Below are positions 6,227 through 20,106 of a stretch of DNA of 53,124 nucleotides, one piece after another. A model generated the notes under the pieces. It had not been told where the DNA came from. It saw only the letters and a list, made by a program, of their open reading frames with translations, and did no database searches. Made by a program: the position numbers and the translations under genes. Position 1 is the first letter of the stretch. Each line of letters begins with the position of its first letter. Source of the stretch: Thelocarpon superellum (lineage: Eukaryota). The DNA lies in NCBI GenBank assembly GCA_026025795.1, contig JAPEUG010000082.1, forward strand, positions 1 to 53,124, given 5' to 3'.

Positions 6227-7359
6227 TTATGATGGAGCATCATGCTGACCCTCCCTGCGAAGGCCTTCTTCCTCCCCATGAGTGCCCTCTTCCACCCCAC
6301 GCTGTCCCTTGGCCGCGTCCGCGTGCTTGGCGGGATCGAAGACGTAGATGGGGAATTCGAGGAAGATGGTCCGCTTGAGAATGGTGGGTAGCGGAGCGTA
6401 CAGCGGCGGAGGGAAGGGGATCAGGATGCTGGTGCGTTGGAGGTATCGCGAGTACGCCTCCCATCCGTTCCCGCTCTCGTATCGCTTCTTCGCACCCGGC
6501 CGTTCCGAGAGGGGAAGGCCCGACACAAACATGAGCAGCACGGTGAGGAAGATGGGCCCGACGATGGTGGCATACAGCGCTCGGAAGGCCTGTCCGCCCA
6601 CGTATCCGTCCGCGGCGGGGGAGACGGCAATCATGAAGATCGCTGGGGCAGGACAGTCAGCCGACGAGTCCACAAGAGGATCAGAATACCCTACCGAACT
6701 GGATGATGATCTCTCCAAAGTAGTTGGGGTGTCGGCTCCACGCGAAAAAACCAACGTCACACACGACGCCCTTCTTGGAGGGGTCGCTGCGGAAACGGTA
6801 CTTCTGCACGTCCGAAACACTCTCCATCACCAGACCGATGGCGTACAGGATGACGCCGGCGATGTCTCGCCCCGTGCCAAACGCCGGCTGGGGGTACTGC
6901 GTCACATTGGGCGAATTGAGCACCGTCACTGGCAACGAGACGACCCATACCCACACCATCTGGAAAACCCAGAAGCCCAGGAATTTGAAGAAGTCGTTCC
7001 GCTTGTCGTCGAAGCGATCATCCTTGCCCGTCTTGAGGATGCGAAAGAGCAGGAAGCCAGAGAGACGCGCGCCCCAGACCATGATGAAGAGCGACGCCAC
7101 GATTTGGCGCGCATGGTGATGGCCGCTGAACGCGAGGGTGATGACTGCGAGCACGATGAAATTCGTTCCGCCCGCAAAGTCTGCGTGCGCCCACGAGCAT
7201 TAGCATCGTGGACTTGAGGGGCGATCCCAATCATCGCCTACCCGTGAGCTTATCAAACTTGAAGGAGAAGGCGATGGAGAAGAAGAAAAGTTGATAGGCG
7301 ACGGTGATCAACAATGTGATGGCCAGGTAGTAACGGTCGAGCACGTACACTTCCGCCAT
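6227..7359 (-). CDS. DUF1295 / steroid 5-alpha-reductase-like membrane protein
   Basis: MAEVYVLDRYYLAITLL start, FKFDKLT, FRILKTGKDDRFD, WSRHPNYFGE, FVSGLPLSE, YLQRTSILIP. Confidence 0.85.
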
Positions 7360-8916: not shown

Positions 8917-10792
8917 ATGAGGGCCGTGACGACGCTCCTGCTACGGCTACTCCTCTTGCTCGCGGCGTCATCCTTGCCGAGCCTGGTCGAGGTAGGTCGC
9001 CCATCTCGAGACCACGTCCGCGTTGCTTGCTCCCACTTACATTCACATGGGCTCAGGCTCAGGCTCAAGCCCAGGCTCAGGCTGCTGCCGGGGCTGCCGC
9101 CATGCCGGCTACGGGCCCGGACGTCGACCAAAATGCTGGGAACATGGCTGCGGCCGCTCCGAGCATGGCTGCAGCCGCGGCGAACATGCCCGCGGCTCCC
9201 GCCCAAGCAATGCCCGCAAACCCGGGCCCGGCCATGGGTCAGAACATGCCGGCAGGAGAAGAAAACTGCACCAGTATGAGCGGCATGACCGGTCCCATGG
9301 CTGCCGCGGCTCCTACCTCGCCGCCGGCGGCAGCGCAGCCGCAGCCGCAACCGCAGCCGGCCGCCATGTCTGGATACTACGCGAAGCCACAGCCACAGCC
9401 ACAGCCACAACAGCAGCCGGCGCAACCGCAGCCAGCGCAACCACAAAACTACATGACGACCATGACGATGTACCAGTATGTACTCCAACGGGCGAGTCCA
9501 CCGTTTTCCTCTAATCCGTGTTAGGATATCGACGGAGTACATGACCCAGATGCAATATCAGCAAATCACCATGCATGACACATATACACAGACCCAGACC
9601 GTCACCACTACCGTCAGCTCGGTGTGCCCTGTTCAATCCGTAAGTTTCGTCCGTCCGTCCGTCCGCCACGACGGAACACGCTGATTCTGACTCCTACCAG
9701 CCCTCCCTGCCCAGCCCAGCACCCGCCGACCCGTCGCCCTCACCAGCTTCGGCACAACCCACCTGCCCGACGAGCGGGTGCGCGCAGCCAGCGCCGTCAC
9801 CATCGCCGACCTGTACCACAAATTGTCCGTCGGAGATACAAACGACGTCATGTTCACAAAACTGCTCCCAGCCTGAACCGACGCCGGAGCCGGATCCGTC
9901 ACCGTCCCCCGCACCGTCCCCACCATGCACGACGAACTGTCCGTCCCCAGCGCCGGCCTCTTCGCCACCTTGCACAACAAACTGTCCGTCCCCAGCGCCG
10001 GCCTCTTCGCCACCTTGCACAACAAACTGTCCGTCGCCTTCACCCTCTCCGGCTTGTACGTCGAATTGCCCGGCGCCATCATCGTCCGCCGCATGCACGT
10101 CAAACTGCGACACGTCGGCCGAGCCGTCGCCGACCTCTTCTCCGCAGCCAGAAGCGTCGTCGTGCAATTGTCAGTGCAACTGCCCGATGAACCCGTGGGC
10201 CAATATGCCGCCGCCGCCCAGCAGCCCGCAGTGCGGCGCCATGCCGCAGAATCCTATGATGCCGTATAACATGGGCGGCATGAACTCGAGCAACTACAAT
10301 CCCCCGTACGCCAGCGGTGCCGGAGCAGGCCAAGGCGGATCGGCCTCTACTGGACCTCCGTATGCACCTCCGCCGAGCTCGCCAACGGGAGGTTCGCAAT
10401 ACGGCGGCGGCACTGGGGATCCCAACAACCCGGACAACGCGGCCGCAGCGGGCGCGGCTGGCAACTCAGTCAAGCCAAGTCCGGACAATGGAGCGAATGA
10501 CGGACTAGCGGCAGCGCTCTCGCACTTCCAGAACGCAGCGACGACGACCATGACCAACACTACCGTCACGGCCAATCCGTCGGGCGGATCCGATGGCAAG
10601 CCGCCCGGGGCCGTCAACGCCGTGGCACCTACACCCACCACGACGTCCACATCGAGCTCATCATCTACGACGTCCACGAGCTCGAGCTCGAGCTCGACCA
10701 CATCGTCACCGTCATCGATCAGCTCCGGCAGCTACGTGAGCTCCTTGACGTTGAAGCTCGGCGCGCGAGCCGCCTTGCCGACCTCTCCGTGA
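8917..10792 (+). CDS. Secreted/cell-surface low-complexity protein (~566 aa) with C-x3-C (CTTNC) repeats
   Basis: Signal peptide MRAVTTLLLRLLLLLAASSLPSLVEA. Three GT-AG introns (8992-9056, 9476-9524, 9640-9700) join into one frame. Ala/Pro/Gln/Met-, Ser/Pro/Cys- and Ser/Thr-rich segments. Confidence 0.7.
9936..10035 (+). repeat. 45-bp coding tandem repeat (about 2.2 copies; CPSPAPASSPPCTTN)
   Basis: ACTGTCCGTC restarts at 9936, 9981 and 10026. Confidence 0.9.
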
Positions 10793-11443: not shown

Positions 11444-12481
11444 CTAGCTCTTGTTGGATTTCGCGCTCGCCACACGCGCCTTCTTGGCTTGTCGTTTCGA
11501 CTGCTGGACTGGCTTTGGTCCGGGTCCCGGTCCCGTGGTTCCTGGGGTCTTGCTCTCCGCGCTCGCGCCGGCCTCGTCGTCCTTCTGGCTCTGGGCGTCG
11601 TCCAGCTTCCGCTTGGCTGCAGGCCGGGCGGAGGGGGAGGGCAGGGGCGGCAGATCGCCGCCGTCTACAACGTCCACGACGCCCCGCCAGCTCGTGCGCC
11701 GCATGTCGGCCAGCACGACCGTGGCGCGGGCCTCCGTCTCGATTGCTTGGCGCGCCCGGTCCGTGCTCAGGCCCCAGACCGTCGCGAGATTGATCACGTC
11801 AATGGGCGCGCGTAGCCCGACGGCCGTGGGCGCCTCGGAGCTGAGCACGATGCCGCGGCCGCGGGTGGCGCGGATCAGCTGCGTAGCGTTGCTGATCAGG
11901 TTCCGCCGGGCCGCCGTGTCCGTGGCCAGGATGCTCGGGGCGTAGCAGATCTCGAAGCGGATCCCGCGGGCCGTGGCGGCGCGGCACAGCGAGTGTTTGA
12001 AGTGGTATGGGTGTCGCACGGTCATATCCAGCGAGATGAGCCCCACTGGGTCCAGATGCTGGCAGGCCTGCTGGAGGGCGGCGGCCGTAGTGGGTCGTAC
12101 GGCCAGCAGGTCATAGTGCGAGGACAGTGTGGATAGTCGGTGATTCTGCGAGGGGTCGGAGAGGGTGAAGGTGCAGCGTCGGATGAGACGGAGCGACGCC
12201 GGCGCCGGTGGACTGAGTATCTTGGGGATCGGGCATGCCTGGCTCACATCAGCCCGGACACGGCCATGAAGATTTGGTCCACCTGGACAATTACCACGTC
12301 GGCCGGCAGCTTGCCCGCCAGCGTATGGTTCAAGCCCACGACCTGGTATCCTACTGTCGATCGTCAACGGTCACGGCTTCCATGCCTGCAGGTGGCCCGT
12401 CTCACATTCCGCCGCGAACGCGAGGGTCCTCGGTAAGGTGACGTCGTTCGGCGCCCAGGGCAGGTTAAGGTCATAAAACAT
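11444..12481 (-). CDS. RPP1: RNase P/MRP subunit p30
   Basis: MFYDLNLPW start, LIRRCTFTL, YDLLAVRPTT, GIRFEICY, RRNLISNATQLIRATRGRGIVLSSEA, LRAPIDVINLATVWGL. Confidence 0.92.
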
Positions 12482-12803
12482 GGGGGCGCATACTACCAAC
12501 GTAGTAAGGTAGAAAGCATGCAACAGAGTGAAAGTCCACTCGAGGCTCTGATCTGAGTCTGGCAATGTCCTGGGAAGCGTGGGAGGGGGTCGTAGTCAGC
12601 CAGATTTGGACTCGCGTACGCTCCATAGTGTGGAGGCTCCATACGGGAGCTCGAGGCTTTTGACTAAGCTGCCTCACGTGACCCACCCTAGCTGCATATT
12701 AGAACGACGGATAGCTTTCGTAGAATAGACCACCCATCTCCAGTCGATTGTTGGGGTGCGTCAGTACCAAACACGAATGAAAGGGACTTTGTGAAATACC
12801 GGC

Positions 12804-13060
12804 TGTGATGACGAAGGCCTACAGCTAGGCGGAAACAGTAGATGTAGTCAATGGAGTTGACCCTGTGGCTCCTAGGGCTCATAGACCTATGACTAGCCTC
12901 CTTGTGTTACTTGAGTTGAACACTGGGGCTCTGCTAGCTCACAGCAGGACTTGGTTTATATACAGTGTGCCAGGTCACATGCTGTATCATGTGACCATCA
13001 CATAGCCATCACATGATCACTCCTATCCTTGTGGCAAGGTGTGGAGCTCCTGGCCTCACA
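12804..13060 (-). repeat. 3' LTR (257 bp)
   Basis: Aligns without gaps to 19567-19823 with 11 differences by manual count, all transitions. Confidence 0.95.
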
Positions 13061-13063
13061 ATT

Positions 13064-13076
13064 ACCCCCTTCCTTA
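13064..13076 (-). other. Polypurine tract
   Basis: Minus strand reads AAGGAAGGGGGT a few nt upstream of the 3' LTR TG. Confidence 0.8.
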
Positions 13077-13395
13077 GCACTCTGTTCTAGGAGCGCACAC
13101 AGCTATTCACCTACTGCTATTGAACTGGTTGGCCCTGTGGGGTGGTTGTCAATAGCGCTGTAGGGCTAGGGCAATGTGTTGTTGTCATGTTGTGGTGAAT
13201 TGCTGCTAATTCACACATTGTTGATATTTGTTGTGGGTCTGTCAACACTCTGCTTCTTCTGCAGCTTCTTCATCAACTAGGATCTTGATCTGCAATTGTT
13301 GCAGCTTCTTTGTTCAAGGATATCCTGTGTCTGTTCTGCTCCTGTTCTACTCCATTGATCCACTTCCACCTCTCCAGCTTTTGCCAAACCTCACA

Positions 13396-14335
13396 ATGTC
13401 TGCTATGTTGCCTGAGCAGGTGGCCATGCCTGGCCTACCTCCTGTGTTAGATTGGAGCACCTGTCAACACTGCATCAAGTGGATCAGCCACAACCACAGC
13501 CATAGGTGCTATAAGCCTAATCTGTATAGGAAGTGCAATAGGTGCTGAAGCACTAGGCACCCCTGCCTCTTAGTATGTCAATTGCTCTGCTGTGTAGCTG
13601 CACTGATTCATTGTCATTGACTAGATCCCCACAAAGTTTGTAGGACATGTGAACACCATCTTCTGGCTGCAAGAGCAGTACATGAACTTGCTCCATCATC
13701 CTCCTACCAACACCATCACAGTGGAAACACAGCTGGAGACCTATAGGTCTAGCCTGCTGCTCCACATCTCGAAGTTCCATTCTGCTGTTGAATTCAACAA
13801 GCATGGACAGTGTGACAGCAGTGCTCTTCTTGCTGCAACTGAGCACTTGAACTTCCTCCTGATAGAGATCCTGAACCAGCTGCGCTACTTGGTAGGTGTC
13901 TGTGTTGTCTCTGCTGCTTGCTGGGTGTCGCTCACATTGCAGTAGAATCGATTCCCTGCAGTCTGCCCATTTAGTCCTGACAAGGACCCAGACCTTCTGG
14001 ACAAACCACTTGAGGGTAAGGCCACTCCTCAAGTGTGTGGTTTCACAATTGGCAGAGTCAACCCTAGCACAAACCCCAGCTCTCAATCTGCTAGGTGTTG
14101 TGGATGTGGATGTGGATCGACCCAAGACACTCCATTGTCTCCATCGTCTACTACCTCAACCCCAAGCCAAGGTCCTTCAGGGGGGACAACAACCTCAGAA
14201 CCATCCCCAAGCGCCAGCTGCCAGGCCTTGTGGTCTGCAACTCCTCACACCCTGCATAGCCAAACAGTGTCCAGCGCTTCCCACATGGCTCTTGACAGAG
14301 CTGAGGCCTCCTGTCGTCCTCTGGCCAACAACTAG
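13396..14335 (+). pseudogene. Antisense, spliced accessory gene inside the retrotransposon; N-terminal Zn-cluster-like C-x2-C-x11-C-x8-C-x2-C-x6-C motif
   Basis: CACAATG start. Putative introns GTATGT..CTAG 13573-13624 and GTAGGT..CTCAC..TAG 13892-13945 join ORFs 13228-13548, 13649-13945 and 14033-14335 in frame. One TGA (13546-13548) is explicable as CGA>TGA. The 3' end is uncertain. Confidence 0.65.
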
Positions 14336-14499
14336 CTGCTTGTTGGTTACACCTTGCAGGTCCTTTCCTGTTGAGGTGATCTTTGTATCTCTTGCTGTGT
14401 GGTTGGGCCCTGGGCCCCCAGCCACTAGGAGCTAAGCCCACATGCCACTGGCTTCCTAGGTTGCTGCGCCTTCCCTGCAGAGGGACTGAATCCATTCTT

Positions 14500-17400
14500 A
14501 ATCAACTACCTAGCATTGTGCCTGTGATTGTCTTGTAGGAGCTGTAGGACACTCATGTTAACATTGTTTGAACTTGTTGAGTAGGTCTTGTGAGTGTAGC
14601 AGGTCTTCCTCAGGCACCCAGGAGTTGTGAGCCTCTGAGTAGCCTTTCCATTGTATGAGGTAGAGCTGCTTCCTATACTGCTTGCATTCTGCTAGTATAG
14701 ACTCTATTTCCCATTTGTCTTCACCATTGATCTAGATGGGGCCTGGTTGCTCCTCATCGCTGTTGTCTCTCTGCCTGTGGGGTTCCAACAGGGAGATGTG
14801 GAACACAGGGTGTATCTTGCCCAGCTTGCTCCCTAGGTCCAATCAGTAGGCCTGCCTGCCTACTGCTTCCAATATGTGGAATGGGCCATGGTATTTTGTG
14901 TCAAGCTTCTTGCTTAGTCTTGTAGAGTGGATGTTGCATGCTGATAGCCACACCTGCTGTCTGACTGTGTATGTCATTTGCTTTGTCTTGCAATTGTAGT
15001 ATCTGGCCTGTGTTTTCTAGGCTTCCTAGAGCTGCTGCACAAGTTCTCCTTGTAGCTCTTGTAGGTGGCTAACCCTCTGTGTAACATCTGGGACCTTGCA
15101 AGGGGGTGGATCCCTAGTCAGGTCAAGCACAGGGTTGTAGCTGTACATCACATAGAACAGTGATACTCCCAATGAGGTGTGGTGGCTGTTGTTGTAGGAG
15201 AATTCAGCTAGGGGTAGCCATTGGACCCAATTGTCTTAATGCTAGTTGATGTAGCTGTGAAGGTATTGCTTGAGTGTTTGGTTCTGTTGTTCCATCTGTC
15301 CATCTGTTTGTAGATGGAACACAGAGCTCAAGCAGCGCTTGATCCTTGTGTGGTAGCACAGCATAGACTAGAAGCTTGCTGTGAACACTGTGCCTCTGTC
15401 AGAGACTATGGAGCTTGGTAGCCCATATCTGCTAACAACCTGCTTGATGAAGACATCTGCCAGCTTGGGTGTGTCGATTGTCTTGCAAACTGCAATGTAG
15501 TGCACCATTTTGGTGAAGTGGTCCATGACAACTAAGATGGAGTTGTAGGCCTTCCTACTGCTACCACTTAGGGGTAGGTCAGTGACAAAATCCATGGTTA
15601 GGTCCTTCCATGGTTCCAATGGTGGAGGAAGCGATTGTAGCTCTCCATACTGCTTGTGCCTTGCTGGCTTCATTTGTCTGCACATGGTGCAGGTAAGGAC
15701 ATACTCCTCAATGTCCTAGGCCACAGTAGGCCAGCTGTACTTTTGCTGGACCAGCTCTGTAGTCCTGTGTACACCAAAGTGCCCTGCTAAAGGGTTGTTG
15801 TGGTGGGTTTGCATAACCTCCAAGCATCCTGCTCCCTGAGCAGGGACATACAGGCGCCCCTTGTGGAGCACAAGGCTGTCTGTGTCCTTGCTCCACACCA
15901 CTGTAGGGTTGTTGCATCCTTGTGTTGACATATCAGCATTGTCTTGTAGGAAGCCCTTCTGTGTTATATGTATAACATCAGGGTCTGCTTGCTGCAGTTC
16001 TGCGAGGACCTTGCAGAAATCGCTTGTAGCTTTGCTGTAAGCTGTCTCAGCATGTGATGCTGCAATCACTGTTTGTCACAGTGTAATGCACACATGGCTG
16101 CCACTGCTAACCATCAGGGCGAGCGCTGCTGCTCCACCTGGTTCACCTGTTGCATGGGGTTGGTCATGGCCAGCCATGGTATCAACAAACCACATGGGAG
16201 TTTCCTGCTCAGGGGCAGCAGCTTGCTTGTAGTCTGGACATCTCAATGGAGTGTTGGCTGGGTTCAATCTCCCTGGTCGATGTGTGATTCAGAAGTCATA
16301 TTTGGATAGGTCACTATACCACCTCTTGTGGTGTCCACTTAGTGTCTTAGCTGAGGTGAACATGCAGAGATTGTTGTGATCTGTCACCACCTCGATCTGG
16401 TGTGCTGCACCCTGGAGGTAGTGTCTCTACTGTGCAAATGCTGCAACAATTGCTAGCATCTCCAGGTTGCCTGTATTGTAGTTGTACTCAGTGTCTCTGA
16501 GCTTGTGCAAGTAGAACACAATGGGTTGCTATTGGTGGTGTAGCTTCTTGTCTTCCTGGTGCTGCTAGCACAGGATTCCTGAGATGCCTATCTGCAAGGT
16601 GTCTGTCTCAACCCATAGGGGGAGGCAGGGATCAAAGTGGCCTAAGACTAGTGCCTTGGTGAAGGTGTTGTGTAGTTGTTTGAAGGAGTAGTGAGCTTCC
16701 TGTGTCAACACCACAGGTGTGTTCAACTTCTTGCTTAGTGTCTTCACCAGCACATTGAGTGGCTGTGTGAGCTCTACAAAGCCCTTGATGAAGTGCTTGT
16801 AGAAGTTCACAAATCCAATGAATGATTAGATATCCCTTGTAGTCTTAGAAGCTGGCCATTCTACAACAGCTTCCACCTTACTAGGGTCCATATAGATCCC
16901 CTAAGGTGTGATGACATACCCTACAAAGGGGACTCTGTTGACATTGAACTAGCACTTTTCTAGCTTGAGAAATAGGCTAAGGTGTAGGAGGTGTTCAAGC
17001 ACCTTGCACATGTGCTGTGTGTGCTCAGCCTTGACTTTGCTGTATATGACAATGTCATCCAAGTATACTACACAGAAGTTGTCCAGGTATTCTGCTAGTC
17101 CTCTATTGATATAGCTCTGGAATGTAGCAGGGGCGTTGACAAGCCCAAATGGCATCACCCAGTATTCAAAGTGTCCATATCTTGTTTGGAAGGCTGTCTT
17201 CCACTCATCCCTGTCCTTGATGTGGATCAGGTTGTACACAGCATGTATGTCAAGCTTGGTGAACACCTTGCCCCACAAGAGTTGATCTAGCAACTTGCTG
17301 ATCAATGGCAGTAGGTGCTAGTTCTTCTTGGTGATCTTATTGAGACCCCTGTAGTCCACACAGAGTTGCAGTCCCCCACCTAGCTTAGGCACAAAGAGGA

Positions 17401-18190
17401 CAGGGGCTCCTGCTGGTGACTTGGAATGCTGGATGAACCCCTTTTCTAGGTTGGTTTCCACATAGTCCTTGAGGACACTCAGCTCTGTAGCTGATAGGTT
17501 GTAGAGGGGCCCCCATGGTGGCTCTCCCTCTGTGAGGTCAATGGCTATGTCATGTGGCCCATGTTGTGGTAGCTGGTTTGCTAGCTCCTCAGAGAAGACC
17601 TGCTCAAGGTCAGAGTATTCAGGTGGTATAGATTGACTAGTAGACACAGCTACTATAATGTAGTGCTCTTGTTGGTCATTGTCCTCATAGAACATGTAGA
17701 TTGCAAGGACACTGATGTGCTCCTGCTCTACTGCAGTAGCCAGCTCTCAGGCCTTCATGATTGTGACATTGTTGCACTGCTGCAGGATCTCGCCCCTGCA
17801 AGTCCATGTCTTTGTTGTCTAGCAGATGTCTAGGTTGTGCTTGTCAAGCCACAGGTAACCCAGAACCATCTTGTACTAGTTGAACAGTGTAGCCACAAAG
17901 GAGTCCCTTGAGTCTAGGACCTGCCCTTTGCTATCTCTGGCACAGCTAGTCAACTGCTTGACCCCATATGTAGGGATGTGATGTCCCCTGAATGCTATTA
18001 CCTGTGGGGCAGGCTTGTCACAGTCATGTAGCTGCAGCTCCTTAGCTAGCAGATGTGACACAAAGTTTTGTTCTGCTCTAGAATCGATCAGCGCTGTGGC
18101 TGTGACTGTCCTGTTGTCTTGCAGGATCTCAATCAGGACAACCAATTGTCTTGTGTCAGTCTCAGAATGGCGACTCAGTAGCACTGACAT
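14500..18190 (-). pseudogene. pol: pol pseudogene: protease, RT, RNase H, integrase, chromodomain
   Basis: ALIDSRAEQNFVS (protease). [44 protein letters not shown] (RT). LTMDFVTDLP, IVSDRGTVF (integrase). WEIESIL..YLIQWKGYSEAHNSWVPEEDL (chromodomain, ~14590-14720). Many in-frame stops; ends approximate. Confidence 0.93.
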
Positions 18191-18199
18191 GATGTCTAC

Positions 18200-19509
18200 T
18201 AAGCCCCTGCTTTTGGGTTGTGTGCTGGCTTCCCTTGCTTCTTGCCACAGCAGTCTTTCTCCTTATGGCCCTTGTAGCTGCACTAGTTGCATTCACCACT
18301 GAACCCCTTCAACATTGTATAGGTCAAACTGCTGCTATGGTCCTAGGGCTTAGTTGATGTGGATGAGGTGTTCAATGTTGACAGGGCAGACATGTGGTTC
18401 CACATACAGCTCCCTCCTGTCAACTGGTTTGGTAGGGATCAGCCTGACCATGACATCAATTGACTGCTTCTACACAGCTGTAGCACTGATCTGCAGCCCT
18501 GTTTGGGCCCTGAGCCTAGCCCTAGGGCCCTGCTTGCAGCCTGAGGGTTCAGGAGTTGCTAAACCTTAGACACCTCTACTATCAGGCTCTCTCAATCAGT
18601 GGGGTGTTTGTCCTTAGCATCAAGTTCTTGTTGTATCTCTGGTAACAAGCTGGCCTGTAGCACTCTGACACAAGCTGTGTTGTTGATAGGGTCCATGAGG
18701 TCCTCCAGTGATTCCAGGTAGGATACAAAGTGGAATAGGTCCTGTCCTGGCTTCTGCTTTGCTCCATAGTATGACTGTGCTGCACTGTCAGCTTGGGTGT
18801 TGCCAGGGTTGATCAAAAGTCAGAAAAAGTCTTTGACTTCCTTCTAGGTTGTTAGTGGTGTGGCCCCTACTTGCTTGTGTACAAACTGGTTGACCATGCC
18901 AGGCCCTAGCCAGTTGCTTGCAAGGGTAAGCTGGTCCTCATCTGTCTTATAGGTGTACAGCTTGGTTTGTAGAAGGTGTTTGACACAGTAGACCTAGTAT
19001 TGCCACTTGTTGTAGGTGCAACCATTGTAGTAGGGTGGATTACCCACATCCCTGTCCTTCTCCTCTCTGTGTCACTTCCATGTGGTGCCTGAGGATGCAG
19101 ATGAGTCAGGTGAATAGGGTTGTTGTTGGGGAGTGTTCCCAGCTGTCTGCTTAGGTGTGGTGTCAAGCTGTGTTTCTCTGGAGGTCTCATTAGCAGTTTC
19201 TCCAGGCATGGTGTCTGTCACACAGCTCTGCCACCTAGCAATCTCTTGCTCAAGTTTTCGAATATCAGCTTCCTCCTTGAGGACACACAGCTGTTCTTCA
19301 AGGGTCTGCTTGTGTTGTAGGTAGGATATTGTGGCTGTAGGTGGTGTAGGGGCTTCTGTGCTTGTTGAGGCCTGCTGGATCTTATAGTCTTGTTGGCTGT
19401 CTGCTAAGATCTTGGTGTTGGTGTTGATGTTGTCAATCCTGGTCTCAGTGTTAGGTCTGCTTGACCCCTGTGTGGCTCCTAGGTGGGATGTTGCTTGAGT
19501 CTCCACCAT
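18200..19509 (-). pseudogene. gag: gag pseudogene with CCHC zinc knuckle
   Basis: ATG at 19509. CN*CSYKGHKEKDC knuckle at ~18250-18291 (TAG probably from TGG). AKQKPGQDL..FVSYLESLE gag-like segment. Confidence 0.8.
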
Positions 19510-19554
19510 GGTGCCTGTCTGACTGGTTCTGGCTAGCACCCTGCTGGGTATCTG

Positions 19555-19563
19555 AGTGTTCAA
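19555..19563 (-). other. Putative self-priming primer-binding site
   Basis: Lies 3 nt inside the 5' LTR and is a perfect 9-nt complement of LTR 19679-19687. Confidence 0.6.
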
Positions 19564-19566
19564 AAC

Positions 19567-19823
19567 TGTGATGACAAAGGCCTACAGCTAGGCAGAAACA
19601 GTAGATGTAGTCAATGGAGTTGACCCTGTGGCTCCTAGGGCTCATAGACCTATAACTAGCCTCCTTGTGTTACTTGAGTTGAACACTGGGGCTCTGCTAG
19701 CTCACAGCAGGACTCGGTTTATATACAGCATGCCAGGTCACATGCTGTATCATGTGACCATCACATGGCCATCACATGATCACTCCTATCCTCGTGGCGA
19801 GGCGTGGAGCTCCCGGCCTCACA
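19567..19823 (-). repeat. 5' LTR (257 bp), minus-strand TATATAAA at ~19718-19725
   Basis: Direct repeat of 12804-13060. Confidence 0.95.
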
Positions 19824-20106
19824 CCGGCTGGGGTCGAGTATTCACGTAACCGCCGTCATGTGGAGCAACTGCACTAGTGGAACCACTAATTTTTCGACTT
19901 TACAACAATTTCAAGAATTATGAGTCTGCAAACGCCACAAGTCTCTAGTCTCTACAGGCAATACAGAGTTCGCAAATTGCCAGGACCGTTCCAGAGATCG
20001 AGAAGTCAGGTGTATGGGGGGGACACTCCGCTTCGGTGCCGGTTGAGATGCTGGAAGCCTCTTGGCTGGGGAGGATGTTACTCCACAGGAGCGAGTATTA
20101 CCGGGG

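Follow-up and report, generated by a model that had tools for sequence, protein, structure and literature searches.

In the window analysed here (a stretch of 53,124 nucleotides (nt) of Thelocarpon superellum DNA), a complete Ty3/Gypsy chromovirus occupies 12804-19823 on the minus strand. Between the end of its pol gene and its 3' long terminal repeat (LTR), the opposite strand carries what we tentatively regard as the mutated remnant of an accessory gene that was owned by the retrotransposon family, read antisense to the element and interrupted by two short introns. Its second exon and the first 29 codons of its third act as one spliced coding unit, predicted to fold as a three-helix bundle. 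This antisense, probably spliced coding segment belongs to the family as a whole rather than to the one copy in the window; the 5' exon of the gene is uncertain.

The antisense gene model and its relative

The spliced model (Table 1) has 277 codons and one internal stop, the TGA at 13546. A first-pass annotation, made from the letters of this DNA, had described a stretch between the chromodomain and the polypurine tract that was neither gag nor pol. Such a stretch does exist, at 13061-14557 (1497 nt, from the pol stop at 14558-14560 to the LTR), and the CACAATG start at 13396, the peptide with six cysteines and the GT..AG introns at 13573-13624 and 13892-13945 are there as they had been read. 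The same annotation held that both splices keep one frame through three open reading frames (ORFs). The model does read through; however, exons 2 and 3 already occupy the same genomic frame, in which intron 2 amounts to 18 in-frame codons with its last TAG as the sole stop, so that its splicing removes a stop and restores no frame. Two other open frames overlap the model, one on the plus strand (13896-14435, 179 amino acids, aa) and one on the minus strand, codon-aligned with it (13553-14155, 200 aa). The two putative introns (52 and 54 nt) match the size class of the single inferred host intron (52 nt). The latter lies at 6643-6694 (GTAGGG..CTGAC..CAG) in a minus-strand host gene of the DUF1295 / steroid-reductase-like type, and was deduced from the continuity of the Pfam profile together with the reading frames.

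In the two protein collections searched, exon 2 has a single match, the only one among 1.84 billion representative proteins. This is P0004, a partial hypothetical protein of 246 aa from a metagenome-assembled genome of T. superellum, with 78% identity (E 6.5e-36). The tblastn match of P0004 opens exactly at 13625, the acceptor of intron 1, and the alignment has a gap of 18 residues that is exactly the 54 nt of intron 2. A separate program, working on a separate copy, has therefore picked the same two splice acceptors. The homologous part of P0004 comprises residues 128-245, and the protein itself ends one residue past 14032. P0004 has Arg at positions that read His, Cys, Trp or Gln in the window, and we thus take it to represent the unmutated state. 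Being nearly an orphan, exon 2 fits a gene that is owned by the element. Further relatives of exon 2 were looked for in metagenome contigs (273 pattern matches) and in viral contigs (71 pattern matches), and none of either set was confirmed.

The coding signal was measured with a codon model for which 1139 gag-pol codons from the same element served as the training set and which was scored against a mixture of frames. In leave-one-out trials it found the correct frame in 11 of 11 segments, and gag-pol segments obtained +0.04 to +0.18 nats per codon. Exon 2 scored +9.1 nats (0.10 per codon), inside the gag-pol range and in one frame only, its plus reading standing 16.2 nats above the codon-aligned minus reading. 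Within intron 2 the coding model fell 10.9 nats under the best frame model, and no coding signal appeared in any frame of the stretch 13076-13395. The GC content of exon 2 varies with codon position (0.51, 0.30 and 0.65 for positions 1, 2 and 3) along the lines of gag-pol (0.54, 0.37 and 0.56); exon 1 has a third-position value of 0.66 despite a negative codon score.

From an alignment of two rows, AlphaFold2 predicted three helices for exon 2, with a predicted local distance difference test score (pLDDT) of 75.4, as against 54.2 for the minus-strand translation of the same DNA (34-41 in the other four models), although the latter control was run without a second alignment row and the contrast is thus somewhat flattering to the antisense gene. 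Compared with PDB by Foldseek, the predicted fold found nothing at E<=0.001, the best match being syntaxin 6 (E 0.09) among generic three-helix bundles. Residues 128-246 of P0004 found only generic helical neighbours in the ESM Atlas, with template modelling scores of 0.45-0.59, and neither search points to a function. Nor does any Pfam family match any exon of the antisense model.

Could the whole arrangement be a product of chance? Under strict rules the best spliced ORF of the plus strand has 305 codons and uses the same ATG, the read-through of the TGA, intron 1 and the donor of intron 2. None of 100 dinucleotide shuffles, made block by block, has so long an ORF (mean 133, maximum 292), nor has any of eight natural control windows antisense to pol (86-134 codons). 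Under loose GT..AG rules the plus-strand ORF has 310 codons and falls between the 95th (296) and the 99th (320) percentiles of the shuffles, and the minus strand reaches 323 codons. One could hence picture the 3' internal region as a non-coding 3' untranslated region (UTR) or spacer, with ORFs that arise from a stop-poor, C-rich and TG-rich composition and with P0004 as an artefact of a gene finder. The loose-rule result agrees with this, as do the open frames that overlap on both strands, the non-coding scores of exons 1 and 3, the want of a Pfam match and of any RNA run listed for the segment. However, exon 2 scores as gag-pol does and in one frame only, shows the GC periodicity of codons and has a predicted fold of pLDDT 75 on two sequences, and the strict-rule ORF tops all of the shuffles and natural controls. 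We consider the explanation without a gene rather unlikely; chance ORFs are conceivable, to that same degree, for all parts of the model but exon 2.

Occurrence among copies and origin of the segment

Other copies of the element were followed through the contigs of two studies, four public DNA runs in all, with at least 80% likeness over 12700-15700. One run (X1) is probably the source sample and three (X2-X4) are moss metagenomes. The contig pieces on this interval number 2305, 163, 163 and 19 in X1 to X4, contig depth not being the same as copy number. X1, X2 and X3 fill 30 of 30 bins, with the accessory region covered like pol. The boundary between pol and the accessory region (14557/14558) is bridged without gaps by contigs (records 15 and 22), and so are intron 1 (three contigs, records 11, 12 and 18) and intron 2 (records 13 and 19). 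Among the pieces listed, all 14 that lie wholly within 13396-14335 are free of gaps and all four that reach into 13256-13395 carry them; the indels listed inside the element (13308, 13350 and 13374) are all 5' of the ATG. Since the contigs span the whole segment without change of length, the segment is part of the family and its length is conserved. A look at other copies was what the first-pass annotation had suggested, and here its expectation of a family-wide segment was borne out, contigs of all four runs carrying 13396-14335 with no length change inside it. A different joint, from 13059 to 14736 (1676 nt skipped), was seen in a single contig of X2 and a single one of X3, at a depth of 2.9 and with a side of 28 nt. 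It may be a variant that is devoid of both chromodomain and accessory segment or an artefact of alignment, and is too weak to call.

More distant relatives place the segment in perspective. We found 42 related metagenome loci with integrases 36-53% identical to that of the window, and distances to the LTR were examined in 33 of them (L001, L006, L011, L036-L038 and L040-L042 were omitted as short or partial). An LTR-like pair was present in 22 of the 33, and in 15 of these the start of the integrase-core match lies 1451-1516 nt from the start of the 3' LTR, compared with 2655 nt in the window element. Only L007 and L012 have an uninterrupted pol frame from the match to the stop, which comes 306 and 336 nt before the LTR. 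Relative to these distant chromoviruses the window family has ca. 1.15 kb of extra DNA between integrase and 3' LTR. In the 42 loci no relative of the segment was detected, tblastn of P0001-P0004 giving only E 0.09-0.85 and blastn of the 1.5-kb region nothing. A compact chromovirus family (L005, L007, L012 and about 12 other loci) recurs in long eukaryotic contigs of Ga0307512-Ga0307515. It measures about 6.1 kb from LTR to LTR, has LTRs of about 185 nt and integrases 39-46% identical to that of the window, and carries no accessory segment.

The copies also bear on the possibility that the coding strand is the sense one, with a third ORF after pol: 292 codons of the minus strand in the frame of the chromodomain (14431-13556), including the 200-aa ORF at 13553-14155. 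This long frame is broken by three stops only, all TGA, and the loose-rule minus model of 323 codons could be counted in its favour. Nevertheless, its codon score is negative throughout (-7.1 nats over exon 2, -15.1 over 13625-14155), AlphaFold2 gave it the low scores already quoted, and Pfam offered only sub-threshold matches to RsmF-B_ferredox and UL148 (E 0.04), which were rejected. Moreover, most copies have a TAG at 13733-13735. Position 13735 is A in 9967 of 10205 of the X1 depth and in all of the X2 depth; the change leaves the amino acid of the plus frame as it was (CTG to CTA) and makes the stop in the minus frame. As the minus frame mirrors the plus frame codon by codon and has this TAG, its openness is a by-product, and we find a sense third ORF hardly credible.

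The main rival to a family-owned gene, although we judge it unlikely, is a captured fragment of a host gene. A master copy would have taken up, in reverse, the 3' part of an Amidoligase_2 gene with a helical C-terminal extension, namely part of an intron, the penultimate exon, an intron of 54 nt and the last exon. The fragment would be a functionless passenger, and both "exon 1" and the GTATGT donor would be there by chance. Transduction of genes by LTR elements is on record (PMC7264820, in the parts available), and maize Bs1 is a similar case of foreign, intron-bearing DNA inside an LTR element, P0004 being the possible host relative here (PMC7264820). P0004 does have the end of an Amidoligase_2 domain (residues 11-75, E 1.3e-4) 5' of the homologous part, it ends shortly past what is shared, and it has kept its Arg, as a single-copy host gene would in a genome with mutation of the repeat-induced point mutation (RIP) type. 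Besides, neither exon 1 nor the tail of exon 3 looks like coding sequence. On the other hand, residues 1-127 of P0004 have no similarity anywhere in the window (tblastn, E<=10), and a canonical GTATGT donor, 52 nt before the shared acceptor and in phase with an ORF that opens with an ATG in favourable start surroundings, would be a coincidence. It would also be odd for a host domain that the helical part has no other homologue in the 1.84 billion representatives. Transduced ORFs, the Bs1 type included, usually exist in one or a few copies (PMC7264820, available parts), whereas the segment here is present in many. Finally, P0004 may itself be a chimeric gene prediction.

Several of these observations, and some others, weigh against the gene owned by the family. 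P0004 joins its homologue of exon 2 to an Amidoligase_2 tail and not to exon 1, follows exon 3 for 29 codons and then terminates, and is free of the mutations, as a host gene in single copy should be. Exon 1 (-6.4 nats) and the whole of exon 3 (-11.2 nats) have codon scores like non-coding DNA, and exon 1 has no relatives among proteins of either 105-2000 aa or 32-104 aa. Many copies have a TGA at codon 29 of exon 3 (14030/14031), which shows decay only, yet no copy seen needs the ORF. The copies were judged indirectly, from contig alignments, and none was seen intact. The changes between them are neutral-looking transitions, so purifying selection is not demonstrated, and the indels upstream of the ATG lie in T-rich runs and may come from slippage rather than from relaxed constraint. 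Last, no RNA run is listed as holding 13061-14560, a result with no bearing on expression.

An antisense gene located between pol and the 3' LTR is nothing new in itself, and the putative introns are what the case in the window adds. The fungal example, brtn, is said to have been described by Zhao et al. in 2011 (Virology 417:248). According to the available parts of the papers cited in this paragraph and the next, antisense additional ORFs (aORFs) are found at this place in Grande, RIRE2 and Retand and, as brtn, in the fungal chromovirus Boty (PMC7264820, PMC11963269, PMC8365987, PMC4227169); introns go unmentioned there. The model in the window resembles them in that it lies, at 13396-14335, between the end of pol (14558-14560) and the edge of the LTR (13060), and contigs of four runs from two studies indicate that at least most copies of the family have it. 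The antisense segment thus fits the known type by position, orientation and presence across copies. brtn is the antisense additional gene of the Boty-like Ty3/Gypsy chromoviruses of Botrytis and Sclerotinia (PMC8365987, PMC7264820, PMC4227169), and as in Boty we have here a fungal Gypsy element with a chromodomain and an extra gene on the opposite strand; unlike brtn, the gene in the window is seen only as a mutated remnant, and the likeness is drawn from descriptions.

Gene23 of maize Grande, the aORF of rice RIRE2 and TRP28 (PF04195) of Retand share the position and the orientation and are present in most copies of their families. Their proteins are likewise orphan or poorly understood, with a nuclear or regulatory role proposed (PMC7264820, PMC11963269). 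These plant elements differ in belonging to non-chromovirus lineages and in having regions of 2.9-6.6 kb between pol and 3' LTR. TRP28 (PF04195) was not matched in the Pfam search of all exons, and the word intron is absent from the main text of PMC7264820 and PMC11963269, whereas two are proposed for the gene in the window. Retroviruses too have antisense genes, among them HBZ of human T-cell leukaemia virus type 1 (HTLV-1) (PMC10186651). Like HBZ, the gene described here is antisense and near the 3' LTR, and splicing of the sense genomic RNA could not take out its introns. A spliced form of HBZ exists; HBZ differs in being vertebrate-retroviral, in having documented transcripts and in its product, a basic leucine zipper protein.

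If the gene did belong to the family, both introns would owe their survival to their orientation: antisense to the element's genomic RNA, they would escape splicing during retrotransposition. Transcription may start within 13061-13395, from a promoter belonging to the gene, or from the 3' LTR; gene23 of Grande has a promoter of its own (PMC7264820, PMC11963269). By analogy with other antisense accessory proteins, the protein of an active copy might be a nuclear or regulatory factor that influences the cycle of the element itself. A fuller version seems to us distinctly improbable: that active members encode a spliced antisense protein with a strongly basic, Arg-rich N-terminal exon (its Arg codons having decayed at CpG to those for Cys, His, Trp and Gln) followed by the three-helix bundle, transcribed from an antisense promoter inside the element or in the 3' LTR and acting in the nucleus on the RNA or chromatin of the element, in the manner of Rev, Tat or HBZ, with its introns kept by virtue of being antisense. 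Were it true, the literature surveyed would contain no earlier case of an antisense accessory gene with introns in a fungal LTR element; our literature search, with subscription journals outside its coverage, returned no intron-containing antisense ORF in such elements.

Antisense accessory genes have been found repeatedly in LTR retrotransposons with their function unexplained, and brtn is the sole fungal case in the literature surveyed, to judge from the parts available. A second, unrelated fungal case with introns would show that such genes have independent origins, and a small helical protein would offer a test subject for a role in retrotransposition or in escape from genome defence.

Cysteine codons of the putative first exon

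The first-pass annotation had gone further and seen in exon 1 a domain like the Zn(II)2Cys6 cluster, inferring that the family encodes a spliced accessory DNA-binding protein. What survives of this is an antisense, probably spliced and family-wide segment; the DNA-binding zinc cluster does not. The peptide of exon 1 (..TCQHCIKWISHNHSHRCYKPNLYRKCNRC*STRHPCLL) has cysteines spaced x2, x11, x8, x2 and x6. As in Zn(II)2Cys6 (PF00172), there are six of them near the N-terminus, with two C-x2-C pairs, and the layout resembles the motif but for one spacer. An intron right after the Cys block is common in fungal zinc-cluster genes, which would also speak for a spliced DNA-binding regulator with six zinc-binding cysteines. 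However, 11 residues separate the second and third cysteines where Zn(II)2Cys6 has 6, and a stop falls within the motif. The canonical pattern, taken as C-x2-C-x6-C-x5-12-C-x2-C-x6-8-C, does not occur in the six frames of the element. At E<=1 neither exon 1 nor the 107-aa open frame had a match in Pfam, Zn_clus included. A PDB search of exon 1 at E<=10 gave no Zn2Cys6 chain; its sole matches, to two C2H2 proteins, were non-significant (E 0.44 and 7.5). The search for homologues of the protein, which had been proposed as a check, succeeded for exon 2, with P0004, and failed for exon 1. With its ranges relaxed to fit the observed spacing, the six-Cys pattern turns up in few shuffles (7 of 1000) when only the accessory region is shuffled, yet it appears in 88 of 1000 shuffles of the plus strand of the whole element.

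The codons themselves suggest another origin for the cysteines. All six are TGY, one CpG transition away from the CGY of Arg, the element being depleted of about 90-97% of its CpG, and 16 of the 59 codons of exon 1 stand one such transition from Arg. The Arg codons left in it are four, all AGG. Both of the alignable cysteines elsewhere in the antisense gene are Arg in P0004, and Trp20 reads CGG or CAG in other copies (places 13453/13454). Owing to the enrichment of TG, the cysteine content of plus-strand translations is 6.6-8.2% in this element, whereas host DNA gives about 3%. Hence exon 1, if real, was more probably Arg-rich and basic than Cys-rich. A Zn(II)2Cys6 identity of exon 1 was rejected, the evidence from spacing, profile, PDB and Cys codons being all adverse, and a regulator of this kind is in our view very improbable. 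There is a lesson for annotation in this. In repeats decayed at CpG or mutated by RIP, the codons for Cys, His, Trp and Gln are largely mutated Arg, so that Cys-rich, "zinc-finger-like" motifs read in them are unreliable. A word of 9 nt, ATAGGTGCT, occurs twice within exon 1 (13499-13543), 36 nt apart, and yields both "RC" pairs of the cysteine pattern.

The chromovirus and its surroundings

The insertion that carries the segment has all the parts of a chromodomain-bearing Ty3/Gypsy chromovirus, and is that of a fungus of Pezizomycotina type. It has an LTR pair with TG..CA ends, a target-site duplication, the order reverse transcriptase (RT), RNase H, integrase, and a C-terminal chromodomain; on the minus strand the Pfam families follow one another as RVT_1, RT_RNaseH_2, Integrase_H2C2, rve, SH3_Tf2-1 and Chromo. 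The coordinates are collected in Table 1.

Table 1. Features of the chromovirus and of the antisense model on its plus strand
Feature	Position	Strand	Remark
Target-site duplication CCGGC (5 bp)	left 12799-12803, right 19824-19828		flank letters
3' LTR, 257 nt, TG..CA ends on minus strand	12804-13060	-	LTR pair comparison
Polypurine tract, purine run on minus strand abutting the 3' LTR	13061-13075	-	sequence reading
T-rich stretch 5' of antisense ATG, putative promoter or 5' UTR	13076-13395	+	every frame scores non-coding
Putative exon 1, 59 codons, CACAATG start, Cys/His-rich	13396-13572	+	coding status unsupported
Internal stop TGA in exon 1	13546-13548	+	
Putative intron 1, 52 nt, GTATGT..CTGAT..TAG	13573-13624	+	P0004 match opens at 13625
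Exon 2, 89 codons, best-supported coding part, predicted three-helix bundle	13625-13891	+	
Putative intron 2, 54 nt, GTAGGT..CTCAC..CAGTAG	13892-13945	+	P0004 alignment gap
Start of exon 3, 29 codons, common to P0004	13946-14032	+	
Remainder of exon 3, Ser/Thr/Pro-rich, C-rich stretch	14033-14335	+	coding unsupported
Final stop of antisense model	14333-14335	+	
pol, one frame: protease region, RT, RNase H, integrase, SH3_Tf2-1, chromodomain (14561-14731)	14558-18262	-	
gag region, frame other than pol, stop-broken	18595-19581	-	
5' LTR, 257 nt	19567-19823	-	LTR pair comparison

This copy is non-functional. Its pol has 1235 codons with no frameshift, 20 premature stops and the terminal TAA; the 21 stops of the pol frame are 14 TAG, 3 TAA and 4 TGA. 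Within 12.8-19.9 kb the ratio of observed to expected CpG is 0.03-0.11 and that of TpG+CpA rises to about 1.5-1.7, whereas CpG is near 1 in the rest of the window, which is GC-rich host DNA. The two LTRs differ at 11 of 258 aligned positions, by transitions without exception. Among the copies in X1 there are 352 transition places as against 7 transversion places, and the 40 variable places listed (of 467) comprise about 21 in CpG, about 15 in CpA and 4 in other contexts; position 13546, the Cys codons and the splice sites of the antisense model do not figure in these 40. The transitions at CpA and CpG, their confinement to the repeat and the TAG and TAA stops are those of RIP-like hypermutation, and the surplus of TAG and TAA stops points to C-to-T change at CpA as well as CpG and not to CG>TG decay alone. 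The element was killed by this RIP-like hypermutation at CpG and CpA. The first-pass annotation had rightly noted that the accessory segment shares the CpG depletion of the element. Its account of the single stop of the antisense model as a product of CG>TG decay needs amending: there is only the one TGA, but the decay is RIP-like and affects CpA too, the pol stops being mostly TAG. One ancestral CpG has decayed in opposite ways in the two LTRs, to TG in one and to CA in the other.

The DNA immediately left of the 3' LTR (12700-12803) is highly repeated in X1, with a summed depth of about 9400, and loose contig ends are numerous at 12767 and 12815, so the element may sit in or beside another repeat. 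About 430 nt from the retrotransposon, its left host neighbour at 11447-12370 on the minus strand is the gene for RNase P subunit p30 (PF01876, E 6e-51). Further left, at 9644-10792 on the plus strand, lies an open frame of 382 aa, Ser/Thr/Pro-rich and with no Pfam family, in a stretch of 64% GC that contains several overlapping open frames.

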